A DNA stretch of 64,000 bases from positions 449,008-513,007 of the forward strand of contig JAVLKG010000003.1 in assembly GCA_032128875.1 (NCBI GenBank), given 5' to 3'. The notes beneath the pieces are model-generated. The model saw nothing but the letters and a program-made list of their open reading frames with translations. It had not been told where the DNA came from and ran no database searches. The stretch comes from Candidatus Melainabacteria bacterium 17Bon1m (GTDB lineage Bacteria > Cyanobacteriota > Vampirovibrionia > Obscuribacterales > Obscuribacteraceae). Positions 1 through 63,690 of the stretch are shown one piece after another. Positions within the stretch are counted from its first letter, which is position 1; each line of letters opens with the position of its first letter. The translations under genes and the position numbers were made by a program.

Positions 1-2
1 GC

Positions 3-1040: not shown

Positions 1041-1095
1041 CAGACTTTGATTTAGAGTGGGTTTAAAACTAGGAAACAAGGAAACTGGCAGCAGC

Positions 1096-3810: not shown

Positions 3811-3874
3811 AATGCTAAACGGCATGCGGATCAGTTTTATAAACAAAAACCGAAGTGCGAGCCGATGGAATGTT

Positions 3875-6273: not shown

Positions 6274-6294
6274 GGGCGACGCCATGCGTCGCCC
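6270..6294 (+). repeat. GTAG-family REP-like palindrome, probably also the terminator between convergent genes
   Basis: GTAG followed by GGGCGACGC-CAT-GCGTCGCCC (9-bp perfect stem), then GGTTTTT. Confidence 0.6.
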
Positions 6295-6322
6295 GGTTTT
6301 TATGACGATCGTTTGAAAACTA

Positions 6323-7003
6323 CTAGCGTTTTGAATTCAGGCGATAACCTTCTTTCGAAAGGTTTTCAATCACGGTTCCTTCTACGTCGCCGATTTTCTT
6401 TCTGACACGCTTAATCGCAGAGCGGACAGCTTCTTCCGACGACTCACCATCGCCGCCCCATGCGCGCTGCGCAAGAGCTTCGTAACTAAATACGTCATCC
6501 GGATGCTGCATCATAAATTCGAGCAGCGCAAAATCTTTTGGTGAAAGATGCACGTTCATCCCGTCAACAGTTAGCTTTCTGCTTGCTGATGAAAGTTCTA
6601 AATTCCGCACTTGGATGGTGACATCGCCTTCCGGAAAATCGTAGCTGCGACGCAGAAGCGCACGCAATCTTGCTGAAAGCTCGGTCAGGTGAAAAGGTTT
6701 GCTCAAATAATCATCGGCACCCATATCGAGTCCCGATTCTTTGTCGGACAAACCGCCGCGACCCGTAAGCATTAAGACAGGTGTTCTGCCGCCACTTGAG
6801 CGATAGTTCTTGAGCACATCCAAGCCGGACATCTTCGGCAAATTCCAATCAAGCATGATTAAGTCATATTTGAAAGATGACAGCCGAAAGTTAGCTTCCG
6901 CGCCATCTCCGGCATGCTCGACTGTGTATCCCTCGTGCTCGAGGAAATCACTCATCGTGCTCGTCAGGTCGATATCGTCTTCAACCAGTAGAATTTTCGC
7001 CAT
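6323..7003 (-). CDS. OmpR-family response regulator
   Basis: MAKILLVEDD, LDWNLP (phosphoacceptor Asp), GADDYLSKPF and a winged-helix C-terminus; ORF open from 7036. Confidence 0.93.
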   Translation of the reverse strand: MAKILLVEDDIDLTSTMSDFLEHEGYTVEHAGDGAEANFRLSSFKYDLIMLDWNLPKMSGLDVLKNYRSSGGRTPVLMLTGRGGLSDKESGLDMGADDYLSKPFHLTELSARLRALLRRSYDFPEGDVTIQVRNLELSSASRKLTVDGMNVHLSPKDFALLEFMMQHPDDVFSYEALAQRAWGGDGESSEEAVRSAIKRVRKKIGDVEGTVIENLSKEGYRLNSKR

Positions 7004-7091
7004 GGCAACCGCTTGTTTTATCTGTGCTTGATACAAGTTGCATCATAGTACCGGGCTCCCTCCAATTTATCTACCCGGGCTAATTGCCGCA

Positions 7092-7763
7092 CTAATCTGG
7101 AAAGAATCCGTAGCCGTGCCCGTGTACGTTGCGCACCACATCATTCTCATTTTCTGCCGCCAGTTTTTGCCGCAAACGTTTGACGCATGACCGAATCGCC
7201 ATATCCGTAGATTCCGAATCTGTCGGCCAGACTCTATTGAGCAAAGTGTCTGGAGAGAAAAGCTCGCGAGGGTGTTTCATCAGGAATTCGAGCAATGCCA
7301 ATTCTTTCGGCAACAGCGGAACCTTCTTATTGCCGATACGAAGCACGCCTGCTTTTCTGTCCAGCTCGAAGCGGTCGTGCTTGGGATTGTCGTCTTGCAC
7401 GTGCGGGCGCCGCAGGAGCGCCGAAATACGTGCGGTCAGCTCGCGTGCGTGGAAAGGCTTGGTCAGGTAGTCATCGGCTCCGGTGTCGAAGCCGGTTACC
7501 TTGTCGGCAATGTCTGATCTGCCTGTGAGCATGAGAATGGGCGATGTGCCCCCGGCATTCCGGTACTCCTTGAGAATGTCAATTCCCTTGCAACCAGGCA
7601 ATTCCCAGTCGAGAATAATGATGTCGTAGTCGTAAGTCTTCACGCGCGTGCGGGCGTCGGTGCCGTCGTTGACGACTTCGCACTGGTGTTTTTCTCTGGT
7701 TAGCCACCCCTGGATGATTTCTGCAAGGGCGGTATCGTCTTCTACGAGTAGTATTTTGGCCAT
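7092..7763 (-). CDS. OmpR-family response regulator
   Basis: MAKILLVEDD, LDWELP, GADDYLTKPF and C-terminal VRNVHGHGY. Confidence 0.93.
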   Translation of the reverse strand: MAKILLVEDDTALAEIIQGWLTREKHQCEVVNDGTDARTRVKTYDYDIIILDWELPGCKGIDILKEYRNAGGTSPILMLTGRSDIADKVTGFDTGADDYLTKPFHARELTARISALLRRPHVQDDNPKHDRFELDRKAGVLRIGNKKVPLLPKELALLEFLMKHPRELFSPDTLLNRVWPTDSESTDMAIRSCVKRLRQKLAAENENDVVRNVHGHGYGFFPD

Positions 7764-48293: not shown

Positions 48294-50078
48294 ATGGTCA
48301 TGCAGCTACAACGCCCGGTTGAAAACGCGGTCGTACCAAATTCTGAAGCCTTGGTGCTCGAACGAAATGACGGTTCGCCAAAGCTCGACGTTCTCACCTC
48401 CCTTCGCTTCTTCGCTGCGGCAAGTGTCTTCTTTCTTCACGCGCAGTCCATGGGTTTGGCTCATGTAGTGCCTGCCGGACCAGCGCATGTCTCTCTCTCT
48501 CATGGAGTTAGTTTCTTCTTCGCCCTTTCGGGATTTCTTTTGGCGTACCGATATCAAAATTTTGAAACGAAAAAATCGGTCATAGAGTACTTTGGCAACC
48601 GCATCGGTCGAATATTTCCCCTGTACTACCTGACTGCGATACCGTTTCTGGTTGTGCCGCAGCTTGCCTGTTTTACTCCTCGGCCCTGGGAGGATATTCC
48701 TCGTTATCTACTCGCCATCCAAGCTTGGCAGAGAGATCCGAATGCCGCTTGCTGCGTAAATCCAGTGGGGCAAAGCGTTTCGATTGAGATGTTTTTCTAT
48801 GCGTTTTTTCCACTCCTGTTTTTGTTCAAACGACGAAATCTGGCGTGGTTGTGCAGCACTCTGATTGTCGTTTTTTTCGTATCGCCCCACTTCATCATGG
48901 CGGCCGGTACATGTTTGAGCTACAGCCCGGTGTCGGGGCTAGTATTTTTTCTTGCAGGAATTGTTGGTCATGAGTGCTTCTCATACTGGAGAAAGCAAGT
49001 TCAACACCATCGGCTTCAAAGTGCTTTGCAAGGTTGGTTATTCACGACTGCTGAGGCTGTTGCTCTTGGTGTATGTATAGTGCTTTCATATTGGAATTCA
49101 ACGACCACGAGCAACGAAATTTTGCTATGCGGCAATCGAGTGTTGTTTTCTCTTTTTCTCTATGTCAGTTTGGCTTGCTCATTTGGAGCAATGATTTCGA
49201 TATTTGCATTCGGGCGCGGTGCAATCAGCAATTGTCTAAAAAGCCCGGTACTTGTCGGTTTGGGCGAAGCTAGTTATGCGCTGTTTCTAGTTCATTACGC
49301 CATACTCTTTCTGTTTAGGCCTTGGAGTCTTTCGCTTCAGCCTTCCAGTGCGCACAATCTATGTTGGCCTATACTGGCTCTGTGCATTACAATTTCGCTG
49401 CTTCTACATAAGTTGGTTGAAGCGCCATTGCGGAAAACAATTTCGGATTTGGTTCGTGAAAGCTTAATGAGTCGGCAAAGCGCACAGTCTTCATCAAAAG
49501 TACAACCAGTAGTTGGACAATCGACTGCACTAACCGCTGGTGAATATGTCAGAGAGTTAGGCGTGCGTTTCTTTCTGCCTGCCTTAGTAATTTCAACTAT
49601 CAACTTTTGGTTTCCACCGATCAAAGCATTTTATTTGTCGGTTGTTACGCCGCCAGCGCAGGAAGTTTGGAAGAAGATAGAACAGCCAGAAATTGCCGGC
49701 ACCAATAATGTTCGCTTTGGTGAGTCTGTCGTTCTTCTCGCTGCCAAGGCGGTCCCAAATGCCAAAGGTGTCTCTCTGCATACTCTGTGGAAAGCTCGTA
49801 CAAACATAAATGATCAAGTCGGTTTTCTGGCTACGCACCTGGTGGACAAGACCGGAAAAATTGTTCGCAACCTCGATCATCAGCTCGTACCAGCTGGAAC
49901 CTTCATTGCCAGAGATTCCTGCTGGGAGGATGTGGTGGAACTTCCATCGTTGGCGGGTGTGGATACATGCGGGCTGGCTTTGTATTATCCACAGAAGCAA
50001 ATCTGTGATGTCGTACAAGGTGGAAGAACTGACTTTGGCGGGCGTCGTCTCTTGGTGACGATTAGCCGGACTCCCTAA
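48294..50078 (+). CDS. Acyltransferase-3 (OafA-like O-acyltransferase) with an extra C-terminal soluble domain
   Basis: LTSLRFFAA..VFFLH, GVSFFFALSGF, RIGRIFP, SIEMFFY and LGEASYALFLVH; ORF open from 48240. Confidence 0.88.
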   Translation: MVMQLQRPVENAVVPNSEALVLERNDGSPKLDVLTSLRFFAAASVFFLHAQSMGLAHVVPAGPAHVSLSHGVSFFFALSGFLLAYRYQNFETKKSVIEYFGNRIGRIFPLYYLTAIPFLVVPQLACFTPRPWEDIPRYLLAIQAWQRDPNAACCVNPVGQSVSIEMFFYAFFPLLFLFKRRNLAWLCSTLIVVFFVSPHFIMAAGTCLSYSPVSGLVFFLAGIVGHECFSYWRKQVQHHRLQSALQGWLFTTAEAVALGVCIVLSYWNSTTTSNEILLCGNRVLFSLFLYVSLACSFGAMISIFAFGRGAISNCLKSPVLVGLGEASYALFLVHYAILFLFRPWSLSLQPSSAHNLCWPILALCITISLLLHKLVEAPLRKTISDLVRESLMSRQSAQSSSKVQPVVGQSTALTAGEYVRELGVRFFLPALVISTINFWFPPIKAFYLSVVTPPAQEVWKKIEQPEIAGTNNVRFGESVVLLAAKAVPNAKGVSLHTLWKARTNINDQVGFLATHLVDKTGKIVRNLDHQLVPAGTFIARDSCWEDVVELPSLAGVDTCGLALYYPQKQICDVVQGGRTDFGGRRLLVTISRTP

Positions 50079-52741
50079 TCAAAATAGACTTGTATTTCGT
50101 CAAGTCGCTTTTTGACAGACTCTTGTGAATGTCGAGCTTTTACCAGCGCGTGTGCTGCCACCGCTTTCTTGTGAGCGATATTTGTATTATCGAGCGCGAA
50201 CTGGACTGCTTTTGCGTGTGCATCAATGTCGTCGAAGTTTTCAATGAGCCAGCCTGTTTGGTCAGTGACAAACTCTGTAATTCCACCCACTGCTGGAGCC
50301 ACAAGTGGCAATCCGCAAGCTGCTGCTTCCAGCAATACAATTGGAATGCCATCGCTTGAGGTTGTGTATAAAAATACGCTGACATTTGTTTTGTCGATGG
50401 AATCAAAACTTGGATAGGCGCCGAAATATCGAATGTTTGGTGTTTCGTTTAGACCTTTTAGAAAAACATCGGTGTCCGATTGAGTTCCTGTTTCGGCTGA
50501 TCCATAGACCAAAAATTCAACTTGCGGAAGTTTCTTTGCCACCTCGATAAGGATGTCGGGTCGCTTAGTATCTACCAGGCGGCTTGCCCAAAGAACTTGT
50601 TTGCCGGTGCGTGCTTCGGGAACCCCATACTTGTCGAGCAAAGGTTCAAGATTGAGCGAAGAGTTATAGCAGCACTCCGTAGTTTTATCCGGCAGTCGCC
50701 TTTCATCCAACATGCTGATTGCCAGGTCTTTCAATTTTTGATTGTCTGTGATTACACAATGAGCCCAATTCGTCGGTCCACAGTGAGGAACCTCATTGAG
50801 AGGCGCCGGTCCACCGGGAATGTATGCCTCATATCCAAACAAGAAATTGACGAACAAACTTTTTTGCTCCAGCATGTCGCGATATCTAACCGCGGAATAC
50901 AAATAACTGTATGCGTTTGAGCAGTATGTAACCTTTGGACGTTTTTCCATTATGAATGCCGTAACCAGCATTCCGCGGTCATTGAAATCGAGATCTGCAA
51001 GTTTTATCACATCGATGTAGCGAGTTCCCTCGGGAAGCCAATCTATGCACGTGTTTTCTTCGTATTCGGTAAACAGAATTAACAGGTTTTCTTTGCCGAG
51101 TTTTTCCTGAAGGTATTGAATGTAATTGCAAGCAGCCCTTTCGGCACCGCCGCGAACAAGACCGGGAATGAGGAAAAGATGCGTGAACTGCTTGGACGAT
51201 AGGTCCAGAAGTTTATGAAAAGCAATAGAGAGCACATCTTCTTTAGCATTTAATTTAGCTGAAATCGCTGCGCGGGAAAAGGGCTGTTGGACAGTGGAAA
51301 CACTCGCGCGCACCTTTTGATCCAGAAGCAGATAATGAGCTAGAGGACCGCCGTGAGTTTTTTCCGACTCCGGGTATTGCTCGAGATAATGCCGTATGTC
51401 AAAAAACGGATGTGTGCTGCCATTTATAGACAAGGGGTTACGCGCATAGTGCGTGAGCAAATTCAGTCCTTTCTCGACAGCCTCTTGATTCTGTGCTGCG
51501 AACCAGTCGACCTGGAAGAGACTGTTTGGAGCCAAATTCGCCGCTTCGCCGTACTTTATGTAATGAAGGAGAGCATGCCTTTTGATGTCTTTCAAATATG
51601 GCGCTTGCTTCAAATATAAATCAGGATCGAATAACGGATGCGGACTCGTAAACTTGCCTGACTCGGAATGCAGGCAGTGTGCGAGGGGATCTGGCGTAGC
51701 AATAACTCTCTCTTCGTCAGGGAGTTGACGCAAATAATACTGAGCATCAAATAGAGGATGCACGTGTGCCTTCAGATTGTCCTTTTGCAGCAAATAGTGC
51801 AGCAGAGGATTGGTCTGTGTAAGGCGCAAATGCAAATTGTGCTGGAGATAATATTCTGAGTCGAATAAGTCGTTTGGTGCAAACCTGCCTGTATAGCCCC
51901 ACAGAAGAAAATGTTCTAAAGGCGTACAACTCGCCTGTCTTGCTTCTTGATACTTGTGCAAGTAATCGAGCGTATTGAAGTATGGATGTGGATCGAGCGA
52001 CCTGCTTGCTTGCGTGACATAGTGTCGCAACGGATTGGTTTTTGCAAAGGCATCGCGTCCTTCGCCACTCTTTTCCATGTAGAAAGACGCATCAAACAAA
52101 GGATGCGGGTTGTACGCTTCCTTGCCCGTCGAGCGAATATAGTGCAAAAGTGGTGCTACGTCTTCGGGACAGTCGAGATCTGGATTTGACGTTAGGAAAT
52201 AGGTCACGTCAAACAATCTGTGAGGACTGAGTTTTTGTCCTTTTGCCAGATAGTGACCAATTGGTCCGAAGGGAAAATACTGCGCTTCTGGCGCCTGAGC
52301 TAAATAATAGTGAAGGTCGAAAAGTCCACTGTCTGCTATTTCTTCGATTTTGGAATCGAATGCTTCTCCGGACTTGCGATTGATATTTCCATTCTGAACA
52401 TAACTTTCAGCCGTGACGTATTGAAATACGTGCGGAAGACGAACTCTAAAGTATGCCCACGCGCAAAGAGTTGCTGGAAAGGCCAAAGCGCGTTTTACCC
52501 AGACGTTTTTTAGCGCGGCTGAACAAACAGGCTTTAGAGCGCTGGCTCCAGTGGCATCCAGCAGTCGGCTTAAACCTATGAAAGGACGTGTCAGGGTGCG
52601 CAGGTCCGCATGAATCTGATCGAGTTCTTTTCGAACGCTTTGATATTCGAAAAGCAACAGCTCGTATTTTGATTTCGCCGGCAGCGTTTCTTCTTCTTGC
52701 CCGTCAGCAACAGGCGTGGATGATGTTGTCTCTTGGTTCAT
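50075..52741 (-). CDS. GT4-family glycosyltransferase with N-terminal FDxxYY/HY repeats
   Basis: RGGAER, WASRL..TKRP and DGIPIVLLEAAACGLPLVAPAVGGITE; nine N-terminal repeats. Confidence 0.88.
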   Translation of the reverse strand: MNQETTSSTPVADGQEEETLPAKSKYELLLFEYQSVRKELDQIHADLRTLTRPFIGLSRLLDATGASALKPVCSAALKNVWVKRALAFPATLCAWAYFRVRLPHVFQYVTAESYVQNGNINRKSGEAFDSKIEEIADSGLFDLHYYLAQAPEAQYFPFGPIGHYLAKGQKLSPHRLFDVTYFLTSNPDLDCPEDVAPLLHYIRSTGKEAYNPHPLFDASFYMEKSGEGRDAFAKTNPLRHYVTQASRSLDPHPYFNTLDYLHKYQEARQASCTPLEHFLLWGYTGRFAPNDLFDSEYYLQHNLHLRLTQTNPLLHYLLQKDNLKAHVHPLFDAQYYLRQLPDEERVIATPDPLAHCLHSESGKFTSPHPLFDPDLYLKQAPYLKDIKRHALLHYIKYGEAANLAPNSLFQVDWFAAQNQEAVEKGLNLLTHYARNPLSINGSTHPFFDIRHYLEQYPESEKTHGGPLAHYLLLDQKVRASVSTVQQPFSRAAISAKLNAKEDVLSIAFHKLLDLSSKQFTHLFLIPGLVRGGAERAACNYIQYLQEKLGKENLLILFTEYEENTCIDWLPEGTRYIDVIKLADLDFNDRGMLVTAFIMEKRPKVTYCSNAYSYLYSAVRYRDMLEQKSLFVNFLFGYEAYIPGGPAPLNEVPHCGPTNWAHCVITDNQKLKDLAISMLDERRLPDKTTECCYNSSLNLEPLLDKYGVPEARTGKQVLWASRLVDTKRPDILIEVAKKLPQVEFLVYGSAETGTQSDTDVFLKGLNETPNIRYFGAYPSFDSIDKTNVSVFLYTTSSDGIPIVLLEAAACGLPLVAPAVGGITEFVTDQTGWLIENFDDIDAHAKAVQFALDNTNIAHKKAVAAHALVKARHSQESVKKRLDEIQVYFD
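51318..52327 (-). repeat. Nine degenerate ~38-aa protein repeats
   Basis: Consensus LFDxxYYLxxxP...PLxHY...xPHP, visible in the translation. Confidence 0.8.
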
Positions 52742-52826
52742 CTTTTTGAGAATGTTTGGCTCACGATGATGAGAATACCAACCAAATAATTGCAGTAATA
52801 GTGAATGAACTTAAGCAAAATTTCCT

Positions 52827-53852
52827 TTGCCAGCCAATTCTTACCGGTTTGGACTCCTGAATTTTGCATTACAATCGGCTCTGCCTTCACCGCCCCCTGA
52901 CGCAAAAGTGCCAAAACGTCCGCTGGTAACCGTTGTTACACCCACATTCAATCGCGAAGCCTTGCTTGGCGAAACGATTGAATCAATTTTGAACCAGGAT
53001 TTTGGAGAGTTTGAATATATTGTTATCGATGATGGGTCGACAGACGAAACGGCAAAATTGGTAACTAAATTCGGCGACAGAATCAAATACGTCTACCAAG
53101 AGAATCAGGGTGAGCGTGCGGCTGTAAACGCTGGCTGGGCAATGGCGTCCGGCGACTACTTTGCCATGGTGAGTTCTGATGACTTGATGCGCCCGAAATG
53201 GCTGTCCACTTGTATTGACTTTATGGAGGCAAATCCGCAAATTTTGGCAGCTTACCCTGACTGGACGATTATCGATAAATTGTCACAGCCGGTGCAGGAT
53301 GTAACTACATTCGACTATTCTATGAAGAATATGATCTCCTGGTTTCACGCATTTCCCGGTCCAGGAGCCATAATTCGGCGTTCTGCTGTGCAGCAATTCG
53401 TCCCTCTGCGAGAACAGAATTTGGTTTATTGTTCCGACATGTTGATGTGGTTTCGTCTGGCCTTGCACGGGGAATTTGCTCGCGTTCCACAGCTTCTTGC
53501 TACCTGGAGGCAGCATGGAGAATCGATAACCGTGAAAGGTTGCACTCTGGACAGAGCAAACGAGCTTGTCAGGATGGCTGGTAAATTTTTCCTAACCCCT
53601 GGGCTTTCGAATGAAGTTCTAGAGCTGAAGCCGCATAGCCTGGGCCGCGCATATGCTGTTGCGGCGGTCTTGACGAAGGATTCGCATCCGTATTGGTCGT
53701 TTTACTTCAGTCAGCGCATGGAAGCGCTTAAATGTTGGGATGAGGAGAATTTGCCGCTTGGGATTCGCATGGGAAAATTTGTCGACTTAAAAGGGTTGTT
53801 GCAGCGCAACATTTTTGTACGCTCAGATTGTCCGCACTTTCACAAAATCTAA
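52827..53852 (+). CDS. GT2-family glycosyltransferase
   Basis: VTVVTPTFN, IESILNQ, IDDGSTD, ENQG and SSDD. Confidence 0.92.
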   Translation: MPANSYRFGLLNFALQSALPSPPPDAKVPKRPLVTVVTPTFNREALLGETIESILNQDFGEFEYIVIDDGSTDETAKLVTKFGDRIKYVYQENQGERAAVNAGWAMASGDYFAMVSSDDLMRPKWLSTCIDFMEANPQILAAYPDWTIIDKLSQPVQDVTTFDYSMKNMISWFHAFPGPGAIIRRSAVQQFVPLREQNLVYCSDMLMWFRLALHGEFARVPQLLATWRQHGESITVKGCTLDRANELVRMAGKFFLTPGLSNEVLELKPHSLGRAYAVAAVLTKDSHPYWSFYFSQRMEALKCWDEENLPLGIRMGKFVDLKGLLQRNIFVRSDCPHFHKI

Positions 53853-53948
53853 ACTAAAACTTCCGTCAGCCGGGTACTTGAGAAAAACTAGACACAAAGC
53901 GTGTTTCTTTCGATAGTATTGAGCTTCTTTCAATCAAAAGCTAACCGA

Positions 53949-55052
53949 ATGGAAATTCTCATCACCGGCGGTACAGGGTTCGTCAGCTCTCACCTTGTTG
54001 CAGCGCTCTTAAAGGCTGGACATCGTGTGACAAGCTTTTCGCGTTCTGGCGAATTTGCATATTCGCTCTGTGACGATGCTCCGGTAGAAAACTTGCGCAT
54101 CGTTTGCGGTGATATTTCTAATCGATTGCTGCTTGCCGATTTAATGAAGGACGCTGAGGTCCTCATTCATAACGCTAGTGCAGTCGGCGCTCAAGGTATT
54201 CTTCGATCAAGCGATGAATACATTGACACCAATATTGGTGGCACTACCGGACTGTCGGAAATTTTGGCGAATAGTCCTCACAAGATCAAACATGTAATTC
54301 TCGGATCTTCTATCAGCGTCTATGGTGAAGGGAGTTACAATTGCGAAAAGTGTGGGTTGGTGCGTCCTGCTGTAAGGCGACGCAATAGTTGGAACAGTGA
54401 TGCTGGATGGAATCCGTCCTGCCCTAGTTGCCATGGCGTTGTTACTCCGACCGACACTAGAGAGGACGCCGCCAGAAACGGAGAGCATCTCTACGCGACG
54501 ACTAAAAAGTGCCAGGAAGATTTGCTTTCTTTGGCTGCAAACAGCGCTGAAATTCCGTTGACGATTTTTCGCTATGCAACTATTTACGGACCGGGTCAAA
54601 GACAGCGAAATCCATACATGCAAATGTTGGCAAAAATAGCGGACGGCAAGTCACCGGAAATCTCAGAAGACGGAAAACAGACTCGCGACTTTGTCTATGT
54701 TAGCGACGTTGTTGCTGTAAATTTATTGGCTCTGGAATCAACGTCTGCTTCTGTTCGTGTATTCAACATCGGCTCCGACCGCCCTACTTGCCTGAGAGAC
54801 TTTGTCTGTAATTTTTCCACTACGTGGGCGCGACTCAATGCAAGCGATGTGGTTGAACCGGTTGTGATGGAAACTCTCACTCCTGGGGACATTCGACATT
54901 GTAATGTTAATAGCAACTTGGCTGCAGAAGCGCTGGGATATCGCGCGCAAGTTTCGATGCAAGAGGGAATCGAACGGTTGTTGTCTTGGTACTCATCGCA
55001 AATCGATTCTGGCGCCGAGGCAATAACCTCGATGTTGAAGGTTCATAGGTAG
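53949..55052 (+). CDS. NAD-dependent sugar-nucleotide epimerase/dehydratase with a CxxC...CxxC insert
   Basis: ILITGGTGFV, SSISVYGEG, YATTK, IYGPGQ, TRDFVYV and GDIRH; CEKC and CPSC. Confidence 0.9.
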   Translation: MEILITGGTGFVSSHLVAALLKAGHRVTSFSRSGEFAYSLCDDAPVENLRIVCGDISNRLLLADLMKDAEVLIHNASAVGAQGILRSSDEYIDTNIGGTTGLSEILANSPHKIKHVILGSSISVYGEGSYNCEKCGLVRPAVRRRNSWNSDAGWNPSCPSCHGVVTPTDTREDAARNGEHLYATTKKCQEDLLSLAANSAEIPLTIFRYATIYGPGQRQRNPYMQMLAKIADGKSPEISEDGKQTRDFVYVSDVVAVNLLALESTSASVRVFNIGSDRPTCLRDFVCNFSTTWARLNASDVVEPVVMETLTPGDIRHCNVNSNLAAEALGYRAQVSMQEGIERLLSWYSSQIDSGAEAITSMLKVHR

Positions 55053-55067
55053 AGTGAAACTATTAGT

Positions 55068-56123
55068 ATGACTACTTCAACAATTGGCAAAGACGAACTG
55101 AAGAATGAGGGGGCAGAGCCCACATTTATATCTTCTTCTGAGGATAAATCTGCGCCTGTCGATCGCAATCGTGTGCTTGCTACAAGATTCACTTATGCTT
55201 TTACTCTCGTCGTTTCAATTCTCTTTCTCGTCAAATCCTCTGACAAGGCGTTTCTTGATGAGTGTGTTCGAATTTGCCAGAACATTCCAAATGTGGTGCA
55301 AGTCACTTGCGGCACAGAGCTAATCTTCAGCCCACTGTTCTTTATGGCATTGGGAATAACTTATGTTCTGGAAAAGTATATTCCGGCTCGCGAAGGTGGA
55401 GGAACATTCTCCCGCACTGCTTATTTAGATTCACAGTGGGCTGTTCCAAAGTTCTTGATATTCAGCAGCAGCTGGCTTTTGTACATTGCATTGCTGCGTG
55501 CTTTCTACAATCAGTATCTCGGATTTTTAACTATTCACGCTGTCGATAGTTGGCCGGAGTGGGCGAAGTTGGCAGTTGGTTTTGTTTGGACTGATTTCTT
55601 GAGATATATTTCGCACTACGCAAGACACAAGATTCAGACGTTTTGGACATTTCATGCTGTTCATCACAGTCAGAAAAATCTGAATTTCTTTACTGAATGG
55701 CGCAGCCACATCTTCGATGATGTCCTCAAATACACAATTGAAGCCATCCCACTTTTTATGCTTGACCAAAGTTTTGTTCAAGTCTTGTTTCTTAATAGAG
55801 CAATGTATTGGTACTCAGCGATTTATCACGGTAATATTCGCAGTAATTATGGTTGGCTTAAACATTTTCTGGTAACTCCTCAATACCATAGGTTGCACCA
55901 TTCAATACATCCGCATCATCGTGATTGCAATTTCGGTCTGGTTTTGACGGTGTGGGATCGAATGTTTGGAACCATGTACAAGAATCTCGACGAATTTCCA
56001 GGCACTGGAACAGAAGATGAATTCTTTCCCTACGATGAGGAAGAATCATCCAAAAGCTACTACTCGAGAACATTCTTCGAGCAGTTCTTCTATCCATTTA
56101 AGCTCCCAAGGATTCGTTCCTGA
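55068..56123 (+). CDS. Sterol desaturase / fatty acid hydroxylase family protein
   Basis: His boxes SHYARH, FHAVHHS, YHGN and HRLHHS; NFG..LTVWDRMFGT. Confidence 0.9.
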   Translation: MTTSTIGKDELKNEGAEPTFISSSEDKSAPVDRNRVLATRFTYAFTLVVSILFLVKSSDKAFLDECVRICQNIPNVVQVTCGTELIFSPLFFMALGITYVLEKYIPAREGGGTFSRTAYLDSQWAVPKFLIFSSSWLLYIALLRAFYNQYLGFLTIHAVDSWPEWAKLAVGFVWTDFLRYISHYARHKIQTFWTFHAVHHSQKNLNFFTEWRSHIFDDVLKYTIEAIPLFMLDQSFVQVLFLNRAMYWYSAIYHGNIRSNYGWLKHFLVTPQYHRLHHSIHPHHRDCNFGLVLTVWDRMFGTMYKNLDEFPGTGTEDEFFPYDEEESSKSYYSRTFFEQFFYPFKLPRIRS

Positions 56124-56142
56124 GGGGAGGCAAGTTATTTCG

Positions 56143-57915
56143 GTGACGATGCTACTTCAGGAAAAGCAACTTCTTAAAGATGACCGTGCAGACGGGTTTT
56201 CAGCAACTGTCGCGGAGTCTGATTCGAAGCACCCTGCTTCAGAACTCAGAAACCTTGATGCACTTACTTCGTTGCGGTTTTTTGCAGCCCTATTTGTTTT
56301 CCTGGCTCATGCGCACACAAGTGGTCTTCTCCACCTTGTTGCGACAAAGCGGGAGATGCATGCTTTCAGCGAGTCAGTTTGTTTTTTCTTCGTGCTCTCG
56401 GGTTTTGTACTTGCATACCGCTATAGAAATATGGATGGTTGGAAGAGTGTGTTGCAGTATTTTGGCAATAGACTGGCGCGCATCGCCCCGCTCTACTATT
56501 TGGCGGGTTTGACTTGCTTGGCCGTGCCGTGTCTTCTTCACTTTGCTGTGCCATCCAACGTATCTTTGTTTGCTTATCTATTCGCTTTGCAGGATTGGTT
56601 TACCACTGCTGAGGTTGGTTGGTTTATAAATCCACCGGCGCACAGTGTTTCTTCAGAAACCTTCTTCTATTTTGTCTTTCCATTACTGTTTTTGTTTGGC
56701 AGAGGGCGCCTAGCTATAACCGCATGCGCAGTCGTAGTCGCAGTGACGCTGACCTATCACTTCTGCGGTTTGAGCAGCAATCCGAAGAGTATGCAACCAA
56801 TTCTTGGTCTTGCATTCTTTTCCGGTGGCGTAGCGGTATTCGAATTGTATAAGCAGTTTGGAAATTCTCTGCGCCAGTTTGCTCACAAAGGTTTGCTGCC
56901 CCGATGCCTTTTCACTGTCGCGGAAATTGCTGTGCTGTTCTTTTGTGCCGATGTTGCCCTGCGCGTAGTTAACCAAGATTATTGGTTGATGGGACGCATA
57001 TTCTCTGGTGGTCCGCTTTTTGAATTGGCAACCTTGGCGGCTTTTGCTGCCTGCACCTTCGTTTTTGCGCTGGAAGCCGGTGCGGTAAGTCGAATTCTCA
57101 AAACGAGACCCCTGGTGGCTCTTGGTCATGCTTCTTATGCGCTGTTTTTGACGCACTACAGCATCATAATCTTGTTTAACTTGCTTCTAAAACCGCATTG
57201 TCCGCCACACTTGCAGGCACTGCTCGGGTGGCCTTGTCTGGCAGTTTCAATCGTTTTATCTCTATTCTTACGCCGGCATATTGAAGAACCATGCAGAGAG
57301 TTGCTGTCTGAGCTGACATTCAATTGGTTGAATGCGCGCTCGGAAAACCTCATCCGAACAAAAATGCCGTATTCGACAATTTGGAGAGGTCTATGTATTC
57401 ATTTATTTCTGCCCGCAATTGTTGTTCTATCGATTCTTCCTTGCTCTCAATTGTTATCTCACTGGTCTGCAGTGTTCAATACCAAAAATCAGTACCAACA
57501 GTGGAAATCGCTTAAACAGCCAATTGTCACTGGTAGTGCAAATATTCAGTTTGGAGATGAGGTCGAACTTCTCGGCGCGAAGATTGTTGCGGAAGAAGGC
57601 AAAACTTATTTGAAGACGATCTGGACATTGCGTCAAGACGTGAAACAGGAAGTTGGATTTTTAGCGACACATTTATTGGATTCGCGCAGGCAAATTGTGA
57701 AAAACCTCGATCATCCTCTTCTGCCGAGCGTATCCTCTACTTCTAAAGAGTCTATCTGGCAAGATGTCGTTGAAATTCCTCGTTTGCCTAATGTACGTGA
57801 ATTGGGGTTGGCTTTGTACGATCCAAAGGTAAAAATATGTGCTCCTGTTAAGGGTGGAAATACCGACTGGAACGGTCGTCGACTTGTAATTCCATTGAAT
57901 GAAACATTGAAATAA
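56143..57915 (+). CDS. Acyltransferase-3, paralogue of 48294-50078
   Basis: LTSLRFFAALFVFLAH, FFFVLSGF, RLARIAP and LGHASYALFLTH; same C-terminal domain; GGGAGG RBS before GTG 56143 / ATG 56149. Confidence 0.88.
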   Translation: MTMLLQEKQLLKDDRADGFSATVAESDSKHPASELRNLDALTSLRFFAALFVFLAHAHTSGLLHLVATKREMHAFSESVCFFFVLSGFVLAYRYRNMDGWKSVLQYFGNRLARIAPLYYLAGLTCLAVPCLLHFAVPSNVSLFAYLFALQDWFTTAEVGWFINPPAHSVSSETFFYFVFPLLFLFGRGRLAITACAVVVAVTLTYHFCGLSSNPKSMQPILGLAFFSGGVAVFELYKQFGNSLRQFAHKGLLPRCLFTVAEIAVLFFCADVALRVVNQDYWLMGRIFSGGPLFELATLAAFAACTFVFALEAGAVSRILKTRPLVALGHASYALFLTHYSIIILFNLLLKPHCPPHLQALLGWPCLAVSIVLSLFLRRHIEEPCRELLSELTFNWLNARSENLIRTKMPYSTIWRGLCIHLFLPAIVVLSILPCSQLLSHWSAVFNTKNQYQQWKSLKQPIVTGSANIQFGDEVELLGAKIVAEEGKTYLKTIWTLRQDVKQEVGFLATHLLDSRRQIVKNLDHPLLPSVSSTSKESIWQDVVEIPRLPNVRELGLALYDPKVKICAPVKGGNTDWNGRRLVIPLNETLK

Positions 57916-57960
57916 AGGAAACCCGTGCTGTTCCAACCACGGCAGCACGGGTCCCTTTTT
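57913..57960. terminator. Probable bidirectional intrinsic terminator
   Basis: ACCCGTGCTG/CAGCACGGGT 10-bp stem (57921-57952) with an A-rich left flank and TTTTT right flank, between convergent genes. Confidence 0.75.
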
Positions 57961-57974
57961 CAAAGCAACTTTTG

Positions 57975-59306
57975 CTATTTGGTTAGAACGACCAGTTGCT
58001 TATCTACACTTTTGGAATTGTCATTTTCGAACTGCGCTTCCTCGGTTGAGCCCTTGAGAGCTGAGGTCGATGCTGCACCGCCAGAGATGGTCATCAGAAC
58101 TTGGTCGAAATAGCCGGTTCCGACTTCTCTTTGATGGCGAACTGCAGTATATCCGAGGGGTTGCGATGCGAACTCTTCTTCTTGCAATTCGACATAAGCA
58201 GGCATGCCTTCGCGGGCGTAGCCGTGAGCGAGGTTGAACATGCTCATGTTTGTTGCGTGCCAGCCGGCAAGAGTAATGAACTGATACTTGTATCCGAGGT
58301 CGCCCAGCGTTTCGTTGAACTTGGCAATTGTTTTGTCGTCCAGGTTTTGCTTCCAGTTAAATGATGGGGAGCAATTGTAGGCGAGCAGTTTGCCGGGGAA
58401 TTTTTCGTGAATTGCAGCTGCGAATTCTTTTGCTTCTCCGAGGTCTGGTTTTGATGATTCGTACCAGACGAGATCCGCATAAGGCGCGTAAGCTAGGCCT
58501 CGTGCAATGGTAGTCTCGATGCCATTTTTAACTTGGTAGTAGCCTTCAAGAGTGCGCTTGCCTTGGATGAATTTTTGATCGACCGGGTCGATGTCTGATG
58601 TGAGAAGGGTGGCATCGAGTGCGTCAGTTCTAGCTACGATGATGGTCGGAACATCGAGCACGTCAGCAGCTAATCTAGCAGCTGTGAGAGTTCGCACGAA
58701 CTGGGAAGTGGGCACTAATACTTTGCCGCCGAGGTGTCCGCACTTCTTCTCTGAAGCTAATTGGTCTTCGAAGTGAACTCCCGAAGCACCAGCTTCGATC
58801 ATGCTCTTCATTAGTTCAAAAGCGTGAACGGGACCACCGAATCCTGCTTCTGCATCAGCCATGATAGGGACGAACCAGTTGCGCTCCGAGTTGCCTTCCG
58901 CTGATTCGATTTGGTCTGCACGCAACAATGCGCTGTTCAGGCGCTTTACCAATTCAGGAACACTGTTGGACGGATAGAGGCTTTGATCCGGGTAGGTCTG
59001 TTTGGAAACGTTTGCATCAGCGGCAACTTGCCAGCCGCTGAGATAGATGGACTTCAAACCGGCTTTGACCATTTGCACTGCTTGTGAGCCGTTCATGGCA
59101 CCAAGGGCAACGATGTGGTGTTCATTGTTCAGCAAATTCCAAAAGTGGCGAGCGCCCACTTTTGCAAGCGTGTGCTCGATGTCGATTGATGGGCGTAGTT
59201 TTACAACATCCAGAGCAGAGTAGTTTCTCGTAATCCCATGCCAGCGGGGGTTCGTCTGCCAGGCATCGTTCAGTTTGAGAGCTTGCTCTGCTTTGGATTG
59301 TTGCAT
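57975..59306 (-). CDS. aceA: Isocitrate lyase
   Basis: [50 protein letters not shown] and HQREVG; ATG 59306 fits the GAGGA RBS (alternative start 59312). Confidence 0.98.
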
Positions 59307-59408
59307 CTTCATATCCTCGGAGTGTGTGGGAAGAATAGTTGGAACTTTTTTGCGTGCGCTATGTGCACGGTTTGGATTCTGCGTTTGGGTGCGGCAATGC
59401 GCCCTGAC

Positions 59409-60992
59409 TTAATTTTCTAAAAACGCGTATGCTGGGATGGTCAGAAAATCTTTGAACTCTTTGTTCAAAACTAAATCATCGAGAATCTTTTCTGCATCGG
59501 CGAAACGGTGTCCATCAAAGACTGCCAGCTTCGCAAGATGTTCTTGCTTTAGTTCTTGGTACAGACTTTCAGTAACTGGGTTGCCGTCGTCCATTTTTGT
59601 TTCTAAAGAAATCCACTGCCAGAGTTGAGCGCGTGAAATTTCGGCAGTTGCCGCATCTTCCATCAAGTTGTGGATGCCCGCCGCGCCGATGCCTCGCAGC
59701 CACGACTCGATGTACTGCAGACCTACATCGATGTTGCTCGATACTCCTTGTCGAGTCACCTTTGCGCCCTCGATTTTTGTGTTCAACAAATCCTTTGCGG
59801 AGGTTTCGAAATCGGATCTCAAATTGTGCTTTTGATTCATTCTGTCGCCGAGAGCATCGTCAAACACAGAGCGGGCGACTGGCACGAGGTCGGGGTGTGC
59901 GACCCAGGTGCCGTCGAAGCCATCGCCGGCTTCACGGGTTTTGTCCTCGGTGACTTTTGCGAATGCTTGTGCGTTTATTTCAGCATCTTTTCTGCTTGGT
60001 ATAAAGGCTGCCATTCCTCCGATTGCATGCGCGCCGCGTTTGTGGCAGGTTTTTACCAGTAGTTGTGCATAGGCTCTCATAAATGGAACCGCCATCGTGA
60101 CTTGCGAGCGATCCGGCAAGACGAAGTCTTTGTGTTGTCTGGTTTTTTTGATCAAACTAAAGATGTAGTCCCAGCGCCCCGCGTTCAGCGCTGCTGCGTG
60201 GTCTCTGAGTTCGTACAAGATCTCTTCCATCTCGAACGCCGCGAGAATGGTCTCGATAAGAACGGTGGCGCGGATGATACCACGAGGAATATTGAGATGG
60301 TTTTGAGCGAAGATAAAAACGTCATTCCAAAGCCGGGCTTCCAAGTGACTTTCCAGTTTCGGCAAATAAAAGTATGGTCCGCTGCCACCTTTAATCAGTT
60401 CTTCTGCGTTGTGGAAGAAGTAAAGACCGAAATCGAATAGAGAAGCTGAGCAAGGCTTGCCGTTGATTTCTAAATGTTCTTCCACCAGATGCCAGCCGCG
60501 CGGACGAATAACGAGCGTGGCGATCTGTTCGTTCAATTTATATTCTTTCCCTTCCGGGCTTGTGAAGGAAAGTCTTCTGCGAACAGCATCTATGCAATTG
60601 GCTTGACCGTCGATCACGTTGTGCCAGGTGGGCGAGAGGGCATCTTCAAAGTCGGCCATGAAGACCTTGGCGCCGGAGTTGAGAGCGTTGATCATCATCT
60701 TGCGCTCTACCGGACCGGTGATTTCCACGCGCCGATCTCTGAGATCCAGCGCTGCCGGACCAACTTGCCATTCGCTATCGCGAATCTCTTGAGTTTCGGG
60801 CAGAAAGTTAGGCAGAACACCGCTGTTGATGGCCTTCTGCCTTTCTGCCCTCATTTGAAGCAATTCTTCGCGCCTTGCGTTGAAGCGCTCGTGGAGCGCG
60901 GCGAGAAATTTCTTTGCTTCCGGAGTGAGGATTCTCTCAACTGTTTCAGTCGTTGCGCCTATGACTTTTATGTTTTCCATAAGTACTGCCAT
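59409..60992 (-). CDS. aceB: Malate synthase A
   Basis: [50 protein letters not shown] and [18 protein letters not shown]. Confidence 0.98.
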
Positions 60993-61124
60993 CCTTCTGC
61001 TCCTTTATAAGGAATAAGTGTCGCGGATGTTGTGGCTGCTGCACCTATTCAAATGGGTGCGATTTTGTTGGCTGCATCCATTTTTATTGGATGGAACAGT
61101 CAACGGCGCCGACCTGTTTATATA

Positions 61125-61153
61125 TTGATATATTGATCGAAGAGAATCAATAC
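61125..61153. promoter_or_regulatory. Operator-like element, copy 1
   Basis: TTGATATATTGAT-cgaagaga-ATCAATAC; contains the perfect palindrome TATTGAT-N8-ATCAATA. Confidence 0.7.
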
Positions 61154-61268
61154 ATCATTTTATTAATTTCTCCTTTTTGCCCTTTGCTGGAAGGTGGGCA
61201 AAAACCAAAAAAGCCTCTGAGCTGCCTTATTTCCCCCCCCAATTTCGGTGATTACTTGATAGGATTAC

Positions 61269-61297
61269 TTGATATATTGACCAGCACAGATCAATAC
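61269..61297. promoter_or_regulatory. Operator-like element, copy 2
   Basis: TTGATATATTGAC-cagcacag-ATCAATAC; same arms and spacer length as copy 1; overlaps the second of two GATTACTTGATA direct repeats (61250-61274). Confidence 0.7.
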
Positions 61298-61329
61298 GTA
61301 ACTACGTCCTGTTGATAAGGGGGTATTCC

Positions 61330-62421
61330 ATGGTCGAGTCGACTGTGATCAAAAGCGGCCTGGACGGCGTCGTTGTAGCCGAGACAGGCATTTCTGAAGT
61401 CGAGGGACAACGTGGTCGGCTGATTATCAAGGGTTTTGACGCGGAGGACCTGGGGTTTTCGCATACATTTGAAGAGACCTGCGCCCTCCTTTGGTCATCG
61501 AAGGAAGATGGAGCCGAGCTGACCAAGCTTTTCGGGCAGGCCCGCGTTGACGCATACGAGATGAGCAAGGATATTCTGCCCGCCCTCTTGCGCGAGCATC
61601 CGATGGATTCTCTGCGTACAGCGACCAGTCTTTTAACCAGCGGCACCCAGGTCGACAGCAAGGAATATGCTCGCATCACCGCAGCTATTGGCGTTTTTGC
61701 AGCCAACTTCTCGCGCATGAGCCGTAAGTTGAAGCCGATCGCTCCAGATCCGAAGCTGACGCATGCAGCCGATTTTCTAAGAATGATCACGGACGAAACT
61801 CCGTCTAAAGCCGAAATCGCGGGCATGGACACATATTTGACCACCGTTTCGGACCACGGCATGAACGCATCGACATTCACTGCCCGTGTTGTCGCCTCCA
61901 CCGAATCGGACAACGTAAGCTGCATCGTTGCTGCCATCGGCGCTCTCAAAGGCCCCCTCCACGGCGGGGCTCCCGGTCCGGTTTTGGATATGCTCAATGA
62001 AATCGGCAGCCCGGAAAATGCCGAGAAGTGGATAGCGACTCAGCTTGATAATTGCAAGCGCATCATGGGCATGGGTCATCGCATCTATACGGTGCGCGAC
62101 CCTCGTGCTGCTATCTTCGAACAAGCAATCAGAAAGCTCGAGGAAGCTGGACTCAAGGCATCTCGCCTTACTCTGGCAAGAGCTGTCGAAAGCACTGCCG
62201 AGCGCCTTTTGGCTGAGCGCCATCCGGAAAAGCCACTCAAAGCAAACGTCGAATTCTATACCGCGGTATTGCTGGATTCACTTAAGCTGCCGAGCAATAT
62301 TTTCTCGTCCACATTTGCAGTCGGTCGCGCCGCCGGGTGGTTTGCTCACATTGCCGAGCAACGCGCACTGGGGCGTTTGATTCGTCCCGCATCCAAGTAC
62401 ACTGGTGCATACCCCAGATAG
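61330..62421 (+). CDS. Citrate synthase (short, dimeric type)
   Basis: GLDGVVVAET, DHGMNASTFTAR, GPLHGGA, MGMGHRIY, RDPR, NVEFY and LIRP; AAGGGG RBS. Confidence 0.92.
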   Translation: MVESTVIKSGLDGVVVAETGISEVEGQRGRLIIKGFDAEDLGFSHTFEETCALLWSSKEDGAELTKLFGQARVDAYEMSKDILPALLREHPMDSLRTATSLLTSGTQVDSKEYARITAAIGVFAANFSRMSRKLKPIAPDPKLTHAADFLRMITDETPSKAEIAGMDTYLTTVSDHGMNASTFTARVVASTESDNVSCIVAAIGALKGPLHGGAPGPVLDMLNEIGSPENAEKWIATQLDNCKRIMGMGHRIYTVRDPRAAIFEQAIRKLEEAGLKASRLTLARAVESTAERLLAERHPEKPLKANVEFYTAVLLDSLKLPSNIFSSTFAVGRAAGWFAHIAEQRALGRLIRPASKYTGAYPR

Positions 62422-62433
62422 AAATTCGGCAGC

Positions 62434-63690
62434 ATGCAAGAAAACAATCCAAAAGATCTGCACGATCCCGAAGATAAGCTTCTGACAGGCAGCCAAGCTG
62501 CAGAGTTCTTAGGCGTCAAATCGGCTACCCTGTACGCCTATGCCAGCCGCGGCATGATTGAGAGTCAACCGGCGAAAAATGCGCGGGAAAGAACCTATCG
62601 CTTGAGCGATTTGATTCGTTTGCGCCAGTCGTCACGCGGATTTAAGTCGCCGAAGGATCAGGAGCCGGCGGTTTGGACCGGACCTGTAATCAAGTCGGCG
62701 ATTACTGAAATTCGCGAAGATGGGCACTACTATCGTGGTCAGAGTGCACTTGAATTGGCTCGTTCCGACAAGCCTTTTGAGAGTGTGGTCGATTTGTTAT
62801 GGGAAACGGGCGCGACTAACACCAGTCAGTGGAAGCGGATGAAACCGCTTCAGCTGCCGAAGGAATTGCGTCCGCTTGCTTCAAAAGACGCGGACTTTCT
62901 GGATCTGTTGAAGTTGATGTTGGTAAGCGCGGAAATGAGCGATCCTGTTTCGCGCAAACTTTTAGCTACGGATATTTTTGAGACAGCGCGCCGCTTGATT
63001 GTCACTATGTCTATGAACCTTGGATTGCCGACAAAGCGCGATAAGTACTTGCCGGATGGTCCGTTTCCTATCGCGCAAACGTTGCTGCACGCATTGACAG
63101 GCAATAAATCGCGAGAAAAAGCGCAAGCTATTAATTCGGCGCTCGTGCTTTGTGCCGATCATGAATTGAACGCCTCGGCGCTTGCTGCGCGTATCGCAGC
63201 TTCCTGCGATGCATCTTTGTATTCTTGTGTTGAGTCCGCGCTCGGTGCATTCAGCGGAAGTTTGCATGGTTCTGCCAGTAGGAGAGCTGAAGATATTGTC
63301 ACCACTTCGCTCAAATTCAAAGCAGTTGCGGCCTGGCTAAAAGACTACTTGCGCCAGTTTGAAACGATCCCAGGGTTTGGCACGGATCTTTATGCCGAAG
63401 GTGATCCGCGTGCAAAACATTTGATCGCTTGCGCTCAAGAAGTTTCCAGCAAAAACACGCATTTGAAACGTCTTCTCGAGATCGTTGAATGCGTGCGTGA
63501 TCAACTGGGTTTGGAACCAAACCTTGATGTTGGTCTGGCGGCAATTTCTTACGCACTCGCATTGCCTGCCGGGGCCGGCTCTACAATATTTGCCGTAAGC
63601 CGCTCATCAGGCTGGATTGCGCATGCGATCGAGCAGCGAATGTACGGCGGCGTGATCAGACCGCGCGCTCGGTACATCGGCAAGAGCTAG
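62434..63690 (+). CDS. HTH (MerR/Xis-like) fused to a citrate-synthase-like domain; candidate regulator
   Basis: N-terminal LTGSQAAEFLGVKSATLYAYASRG; CS-like ADHELNAS, GSLHG, GDPRA, NLD and IRPR; GFGT replaces GFGH. Confidence 0.85.
   Translation: MQENNPKDLHDPEDKLLTGSQAAEFLGVKSATLYAYASRGMIESQPAKNARERTYRLSDLIRLRQSSRGFKSPKDQEPAVWTGPVIKSAITEIREDGHYYRGQSALELARSDKPFESVVDLLWETGATNTSQWKRMKPLQLPKELRPLASKDADFLDLLKLMLVSAEMSDPVSRKLLATDIFETARRLIVTMSMNLGLPTKRDKYLPDGPFPIAQTLLHALTGNKSREKAQAINSALVLCADHELNASALAARIAASCDASLYSCVESALGAFSGSLHGSASRRAEDIVTTSLKFKAVAAWLKDYLRQFETIPGFGTDLYAEGDPRAKHLIACAQEVSSKNTHLKRLLEIVECVRDQLGLEPNLDVGLAAISYALALPAGAGSTIFAVSRSSGWIAHAIEQRMYGGVIRPRARYIGKS

Follow-up and report, generated by a model that had tools for sequence, protein, structure and literature searches.

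A helix-turn-helix protein with a citrate synthase fold as a probable regulator of the glyoxylate shunt in Obscuribacterales

How bacteria control the glyoxylate shunt is known from a few model species, where the genes for isocitrate lyase (aceA) and malate synthase (aceB) are governed by IclR with AceK in Escherichia coli and by RamB in Corynebacterium and Mycobacterium. Here we examine the aceBA locus in a 64,000-nucleotide stretch of DNA (the window) from contig JAVLKG010000003.1 of Candidatus Melainabacteria bacterium 17Bon1m, a metagenome-assembled genome of the order Obscuribacterales (7.55 Mb in 35 contigs, 93% complete). A sequence-only reading of the window had claimed that aceB-aceA are divergent from a citrate synthase gene and from a gene for a helix-turn-helix (HTH) domain fused to a citrate synthase domain, and the open reading frames and domain models bear this out (Table 1). 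We consider it likely that the fusion protein is a one-component transcription factor, combining a MerR/excisionase-type winged HTH with a citrate-synthase-fold sensor that lacks one catalytic histidine, and that it controls the aceBA divergon. As for IclR/AceK and RamB, the target would be the glyoxylate-shunt operon and the logic one of two-carbon supply against four-carbon acids, but those regulators belong to unrelated protein families, none of which was found here. Searches for AceK (PF06315), IclR_C (PF01614) and ScfRs (PF09856, which we take to be the domain of RamB and PrpR) gave no match anywhere in the genome (93% complete); aceK and an IclR/RamB-type regulator had first been remarked as missing from the locus.

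Regulators that reuse an enzyme fold as a sensor, or act as “trigger enzymes,” include MocR/GabR/PdxR, PutA, BirA, and NadR. The fusion resembles them in carrying a DNA-binding domain together with a complete enzyme fold that would read a metabolite, and in the arrangement of its gene, the regulator often being divergent from its target operon. It differs from them in its parts, a citrate synthase fold and a MerR/excisionase-type DNA-binding domain. As a general kind, one-component regulators that couple an enzyme-fold sensor to a DNA-binding domain are known. Another comparison is with citA-citR of Bacillus subtilis, a minor citrate synthase and a divergently encoded LysR regulator. There too, a citrate synthase other than the housekeeping one has its own regulator encoded next to it, and the motif NVEFY is common to the synthase of the window and to 2c6x, presumably CitA; CitR, however, is of the LysR family, whereas the regulator proposed here derives from citrate synthase itself.

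A citrate synthase family protein with a non-catalytic regulatory role has been described in Caulobacter, where CitA has a cell-cycle role independent of catalysis (10.1101/799742). Its paralogue CitC (CCNA_03758), encoded beside citB, did not complement an E. coli gltA mutant (10.1101/799742). Unlike the fusion, CitA is not reported to have a DNA-binding domain, and the term helix-turn-helix is not used, in the available parts of that paper (10.1101/799742). The available parts of PMC9739823, 10.1101/799742, PMC2700814, and 10.1101/2022.08.25.505149 contain nothing on an HTH-citrate-synthase family. Full-text literature searches returned no description of an HTH-citrate-synthase regulator or of this domain combination and, in keeping with what had been supposed from the sequence, none of aceBA control by such a regulator. 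We found no description of the family, of its predicted operator, or of its tie to the glyoxylate shunt, and read the family as undescribed.

Gene order and palindromes in Obscuribacterales

The 337-bp gap between aceB and the citrate synthase gene contains two copies of the palindrome TATTGAY-N8-ATCAATA, confirming the pair of palindromic elements that had been noticed in the shared intergenic region (Table 1). The core of site 1 is 138 bp from the aceB start codon, and that of site 2 is 33 bp upstream of the citrate synthase ATG. Each palindrome is the core of a longer inverted repeat with two tandem half-sites per arm, TTGATATATTGAT-N8-ATCAATACATCAA. These two sites are the only ones in the window with at least 12 of the 14 half-site bases, and the only exact matches to TATTGAY-N8-RTCAATA in the whole genome. 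Four one-mismatch sites occur elsewhere in the genome, compared with two for a reversed control pattern; as further regulon members they look like chance, given that three are inside open reading frames and one is upstream of a gene for a TPR-repeat protein.

To place this arrangement in context, we compared 80 loci encoding relatives of the fusion. The 20 closest (57-100% identity) are all labeled Obscuribacterales, Melainabacteria, or look-alikes, and one of them (L001) encodes a fusion protein identical to that of the window. The aceA gene adjoins the fusion in 19 of these 20 loci, in eight of them without an intervening citrate synthase gene. Five gene orders were seen: aceA-aceB divergent from citrate synthase and fusion (8 loci), aceA-aceB divergent from the fusion (5), aceA divergent from the fusion (3), aceA divergent from citrate synthase and fusion (3), and citrate synthase with fusion only (1). 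All 20 loci have the core palindrome, at 12/14 or better, in the matching gap. Across them the gaps hold 27 hits in 7,721 positions, against two hits (both 12/14) in 315,946 other positions. A second site at 12/14 or better is present in the closest relatives (L001 and L002) and also in L003, L009, and L011. The eight spacer bases are free to vary and the half-sites are constant across the Obscuribacterales gaps, which is the pattern of a candidate protein-binding site.

We also searched 151 genomes of the class for aceA and the fusion; these genomes are interrelated, and the counts are therefore not independent. The aceA gene was found in 20 and the fusion in 12, and all 12 fusion carriers have aceA; no genome among the 151 was found to have the fusion without it. 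The two genes are no more than about 4.5 kb apart in 11 of the 12. The exception is G088, in which the fusion gene is 1 Mb from aceBA; here, the region upstream of aceB has a 14/14 operator with extended arms (L111:9174). None of four aceBA loci from fusion-less genomes has a site at 13/14 or better, and a looser scan of such gaps gave at best a 12/14 match with a different spacing.

Some additional features of these genomes were recorded. In G088, only half-site-like sequence is found upstream of the relocated fusion gene, and the same-strand genes after it encode a fatty acid desaturase, an amine-oxidase-like flavoprotein, and a DUF1365 protein (L110, G088:C1:1038000-1052000, positions 1724-7531, minus strand). 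Another locus (L107, G092:C8:5331-9593, positions 1-2772, plus strand) has a single open frame of at least 923 aa with malate-synthase-like and isocitrate-lyase-like parts; apparently, some relatives have a second AceB-AceA copy in fused form. Long frames similar to it, each interrupted by one stop, occur in G088:C5 and G051:C29.

Table 1. Features of the aceBA locus and of the fusion protein, in window coordinates.
Feature	Position	Strand	Basis
aceA, isocitrate lyase, 445 aa	57975..59312	-	NF011645 744.9 bits (cut-off 562); PF00463
aceB, malate synthase A, 527 aa	59409..60992	-	TIGR01344 765.4 bits (cut-off 594.5); MS_N, MS_TIM-barrel, MS_C domains
Divergent intergenic control region, 337 bp	60993..61329	.	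bounds assume citrate synthase ATG 61330
Operator site 1 (putative), TTGATATATTGAT-N8-ATCAATACATCAT	61125..61158	.	core TATTGATCGAAGAGAATCAATA 61131-61152, 14/14
Operator site 2 (putative), TTGATATATTGAC-N8-ATCAATACGTAAC	61269..61302	.	core TATTGACCAGCACAGATCAATA 61275-61296, 13/14
CitA-type citrate synthase, 363 aa	61330..62421	+	NF009005 375.5 bits (cut-off 332)
HTH-citrate-synthase fusion, 418 aa, proposed regulator	62434..63690	+	HTH_17 + Citrate_synt domains
MerR/excisionase-type winged helix-turn-helix, residues 16-66	62479..62631	+	HTH_17 24.1 bits
Citrate-synthase-fold domain, residues 84-411	62683..63666	+	PF00285 (Citrate_synt) 199.8 bits
Codon for Thr317 at second catalytic His position	63382..63384	+	alignment to 3tqg, 6s6f

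For aceA and aceB alike, the scores exceed the curated cut-offs of equivalog models. The two are on the same strand, 96 bp apart, with aceB upstream. On the other side of the gap, the fusion gene begins 12 bp past the stop codon of the citrate synthase gene. We place the start of the latter at the ATG at 61330, which is preceded by a GGGGG ribosome-binding stretch; the open reading frame listing gives a TTG at 61312 instead. This citrate synthase has the motif NVEFY, with Glu at the position of the catalytic Asp of most citrate synthases. Among solved structures, its best match is 2c6x (“citrate synthase 1,” E 1.8e-72), which likewise has NVEFY and is presumably B. subtilis CitA. The genome has three non-fusion citrate synthase genes, this copy and those at C2:791529 and C5:137656.

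Between aceA (which ends at 57975) and a convergent acyltransferase gene (which ends at 57915) there is a 12-bp GC-rich hairpin with a T run (57921-57952), which may be a terminator for both directions. The region before the shunt genes (50075-57915) is an envelope/lipid-modification cluster that encodes GT4 and GT2 glycosyltransferases, an NAD-dependent epimerase/dehydratase, a fatty-acid hydroxylase (OlsE-like), and an acyltransferase_3 protein.

The fusion family and its dyad across phyla

Beyond the order, 59 more loci were aligned, from Pseudomonadota, Chloroflexota, Myxococcota, Acidobacteriota, Bacteroidota, and other phyla; their fusions share 33-39% identity with that of the window. 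A tree built on citrate synthase domains groups 78 fusions in a single clade (support 0.981) that is separate from the neighboring citrate synthases, prpC-like genes, and the genome's own citrate synthases. Two apparent non-fusion members inside the clade are duplicate entries of fusions. The window protein fits this family by its ATLYAYxSRG HTH, its citrate synthase domain, its place in the clade, and an upstream TTGAT-N5-9-ATCAA dyad.

Subclades of the fusion track the divergent partner gene. In Xanthomonadales, the partner is a set of prpB-prpC-like genes. Alphaproteobacteria, Myxococcota, and others have a CitA-type citrate synthase in this place, Chloroflexota and Bacteroidota have an HMGL-like protein, and Ralstonia, Paraburkholderia, Herbaspirillum, and Hoeflea have a family III CoA-transferase; in two loci the partner is an MFS transporter. 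A synteny survey had been suggested as a check on the aceBA-fusion link, and the link holds in 19 of the 20 Obscuribacterales loci but not in the other clades, which pair the fusion with these other genes. The sister group of the Obscuribacterales fusions is a Myxococcota clade whose partner is citrate synthase, and a tree of the neighboring citrate synthases shows a matching relationship. From this it seems that citrate synthase with its regulator would be the older module, and that aceBA was added in the Obscuribacterales lineage.

The dyad follows the fusion gene. Exact TTGAT-N5-9-ATCAA is found within -250 to +60 of the fusion start at 43 of the 59 loci, with 45 hits in 18,088 nt near the start and six in 827,576 nt elsewhere. 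It is beside the fusion gene, regardless of partner, in Pseudomonadota, Chloroflexota, Acidobacteriota, Bacteroidota, Myxococcota, and Deinococcus. At most of the distant loci, the palindrome is within about 70 bp of the fusion's own start. Moreover, the ATLYAYxSRG stretch of the HTH is nearly invariant across phyla, which fits a predicted half-site that is unchanged across them.

The palindromes could instead be operators of another, unlinked regulator, with the fusion binding elsewhere or not at all. It is true that the tie between palindrome and fusion is one of comparative genomics, that the half-sites are AT-rich and similar to -35 hexamers, and that a consensus scan called no promoter in the gap. 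Three of the observations above speak against this: the same dyad stands beside the fusion in six groups whatever the partner gene, it is missing at four aceBA loci of fusion-less genomes, and the recognition-helix stretch hardly varies across these phyla. We regard an unlinked regulator as very improbable.

Among the distant loci (L023-L080), all 42 sites with a 6- or 7-base spacer have a third half-site before the dyad, in the form [GA]TCAAT[CA]TTGAT-N6/7-ATCAA. In every case it is distal to the fusion gene, and its TCAA is invariant in 42/42. The third half-site suggests that more than one dimer may bind.

Two loci illustrate the range of settings. In a cultured strain of Deinococcus wulumuqiensis, the fusion module is on plasmid pDrdI (L119, 3628-6206), where an HMGL-like protein annotated as “pyruvate carboxyltransferase” is divergent from a fusion (WP_114673293.1) annotated as “citrate/2-methylcitrate synthase,” and the 68-bp gap contains TTGATTGCTAAATCAA. 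On a megaplasmid of Ralstonia solanacearum (CP049788.1; L118, 5001-6284), the fusion relative is annotated as “hypothetical protein” with a shortened start, and cupin, flavin oxidoreductase, and fumarylacetoacetate-hydrolase-family genes come after it.

A profile of the DNA-binding domain retrieved 2,183 clusters (50% identity) at E<=1e-10. When 31 of the shorter hits were tested, 25 had the start of a citrate synthase domain, one had Peptidase_M48, and five were HTH only. Two further proteins, P0123 (270 aa) and P0235 (623 aa), have five and eight tandem HTH_17/MerR-type domains, respectively, and no citrate synthase part. In the annotated records and protein clusters examined, members of the family are labeled “citrate synthase,” “citrate/2-methylcitrate synthase,” “citrate synthase family protein,” or “hypothetical protein.”

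Domains and active site of the fusion protein

The N-terminal domain is of the winged HTH type seen in the MerR family (SoxR, TipA). Among 51 relatives (36-87% identity) at E<=0.01, HTH_17 was matched in 51, MerR in 49, and MerR_1 in 30. Compared with solved structures, the N-terminal profile matched SoxR best (2zhg, E 0.0096), followed by TipA (2vz4), 6amk, and 6ama. The last two are small, MerR-like proteins deposited as “putative DNA-binding protein,” which we take to be BldC. BldC binds direct repeats, and the tandem half-site arrays found here are reminiscent of that mode of binding. The invariant HTH residues in 35 sequences from several phyla are L26, L33, Y34, Y36, S38, R39, and Y55.

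Given these matches, the fusion might be a classical MerR-type activator, which on ligand binding untwists a promoter whose spacer is 19-20 bp long. In line with this, TTGTCA, a 19-bp spacer holding the dyad, and then TATATT are found at three of 42 distant loci. Only those three fit, and we rejected the framing of the dyad in a 19-20-bp spacer between -35 and -10 as a general rule. The operators hold three or four half-sites and not a single dyad. Where MerR-family proteins have a small effector domain, the fusion has a citrate synthase fold, which begins at residue 84; the linker from the HTH is some 17 residues, with nothing named in it by Pfam, and we see no room there for the long coiled-coil dimerization helix of MerR-type proteins. 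Overall, classical MerR-type activation appears quite unlikely.

The C-terminal domain has the fold of citrate synthase, and in Obscuribacterales it has an altered active site. Where the neighboring citrate synthase reads GMG-H-RIY, the window fusion reads GFG-T-DLY, with Thr in place of the second catalytic His. Of the His-His-Asp set it has the first His (278) and the Asp (365), and the set is thus incomplete. Aligned to solved 2-methylcitrate and citrate synthases, the fusion retains DHE-His, LHG-His, Asp, DPR-Arg, and RP-Arg, which among 112 relatives are kept in 112, 110, 111, 112, and 112, respectively. By pig citrate synthase numbering, the kept residues presumably bind oxaloacetate or citrate and the lost His acts in catalysis. 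The second catalytic His is Thr in all 20 Obscuribacterales fusions and His in all 58 aligned fusions of other phyla, which have the full His-His-Asp set. The term “pseudo-enzyme,” applied to the fusion in the sequence-only reading, therefore suits the Obscuribacterales proteins and not those of the other phyla. The Obscuribacterales fusions are probably a ligand-binding, non-catalytic form, and fusions outside this order may still turn over substrate. Residues near the active site (positions 277, 283, and 318) vary by partner-gene class, which hints at different ligands for each class.

The same residues bear on whether the fusion is a working enzyme (a citrate, 2-methylcitrate, or related acyl-CoA/2-oxoacid synthase), a “trigger enzyme” whose HTH serves autoregulation only, with aceBA controlled in some other way. 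The intact catalytic set in other phyla, the conservation of substrate-site residues across the family, and the palindrome close to the fusion's own start at most of the distant loci would all be in line with this. The Thr in every member of the Obscuribacterales clade is not, and all 21 NCBIfam citrate/2-methylcitrate synthase models listed score far under their cut-offs for the fusion (best TIGR01800, 174 vs. 421.3). In addition, aceBA keeps the operator even where 1 Mb separates it from the fusion gene, and the genome already has three other citrate synthase genes. A working enzyme with no hand in aceBA control is, in our judgment, unlikely.

A proposed sensor of central carbon metabolism

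Taken together, the comparisons support the fusion as a dedicated DNA-binding regulator of the aceBA/citrate synthase divergent pair, because gene order is conserved and the predicted operator tracks the fusion gene across phyla. They also support the palindromes in the gap as putative operators of the fusion. We read the fusion as a probable operator-binding protein because the operator accompanies the regulator gene whatever the partner, and because it remains at aceBA in G088, where the regulator gene has moved away. The alignments likewise support the view that the fusion is catalytically crippled in Obscuribacterales.

Several observations weigh against this reading. One Obscuribacterales locus (L012) has citrate synthase and the fusion and no aceA within 8 kb. 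Eight genomes of the class have aceA without the fusion (six from other families and two, G062 and G096, from the same family), and the fusion is therefore no general requirement for aceBA control but one solution among several. The exact palindrome is absent at 16 of the 59 distant loci, and no exact dyad was found at the R. solanacearum locus. The consensus scan of the gap found no sigma-70-like promoter against which the operators could be placed to tell repression from activation. In three runs labeled RNA-Seq, the region is in contigs of ~30-60 kb, as in the DNA run of the same sample; these runs thus behave like DNA and carry no information on transcription. The oxaloacetate/citrate-binding label of the conserved residues comes from pig citrate synthase numbering. 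Finally, the HTH_17 score of the window fusion by itself is under the Pfam cut-off of 27 (MerR E about 0.009); we let this hit stand because the relatives match HTH_17 and MerR as given above. The earlier proposal that the fusion co-regulates both arms of the divergon is accordingly upheld by comparative genomics in its dedicated regulator and predicted operators, and its ligand part is a prediction from conserved residues.

If the fusion is the regulator of the divergon, it would act as a dimer or higher oligomer, like citrate synthases, and would occupy two places in the gap, each an array of TTGAT half-sites (TTGATATATTGAT-N8-ATCAATACATCAA). From there, it would repress or activate both aceB-aceA and, on the opposite strand, the operon to which it belongs itself (citrate synthase and regulator). 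The signal would be a citrate-synthase-type ligand, which the conserved residues suggest is most likely oxaloacetate or citrate, possibly with acyl-CoA. Binding of the ligand would drive the open-to-closed domain movement of citrate synthases and in this way alter DNA binding.

More tentatively, HTH-citrate-synthase proteins might be a large pan-bacterial regulator family that reads the acyl-CoA/oxaloacetate node via the citrate synthase reaction itself. Because most members keep the full catalytic set, they could condense, or close around, both substrates, and that state would be the signal. Subclades would be tuned to CitA-type citrate synthase, the methylcitrate cycle, HMGL-like synthases, or CoA-transferases, and Obscuribacterales would have lost the catalytic His, become a pure sensor, and been rewired to the glyoxylate shunt. 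We offer this wider scheme as possible, with less confidence than we have in the control of aceBA by the fusion.

An enzyme-derived regulator unrelated to IclR/AceK and RamB thus appears to govern the glyoxylate shunt in these relatives of Cyanobacteria, which are non-photosynthetic. The predicted operator, TTGAT-N6-8-ATCAA, is usable for regulon prediction. With the enzyme labels that the fusions carry, metabolic reconstructions may count a regulator as an enzyme of the tricarboxylic acid cycle. In many phyla, the family adjoins methylcitrate-cycle, citrate synthase, HMGL-like, and CoA-transferase genes, and one culturable carrier could open a whole family of central-carbon regulators.

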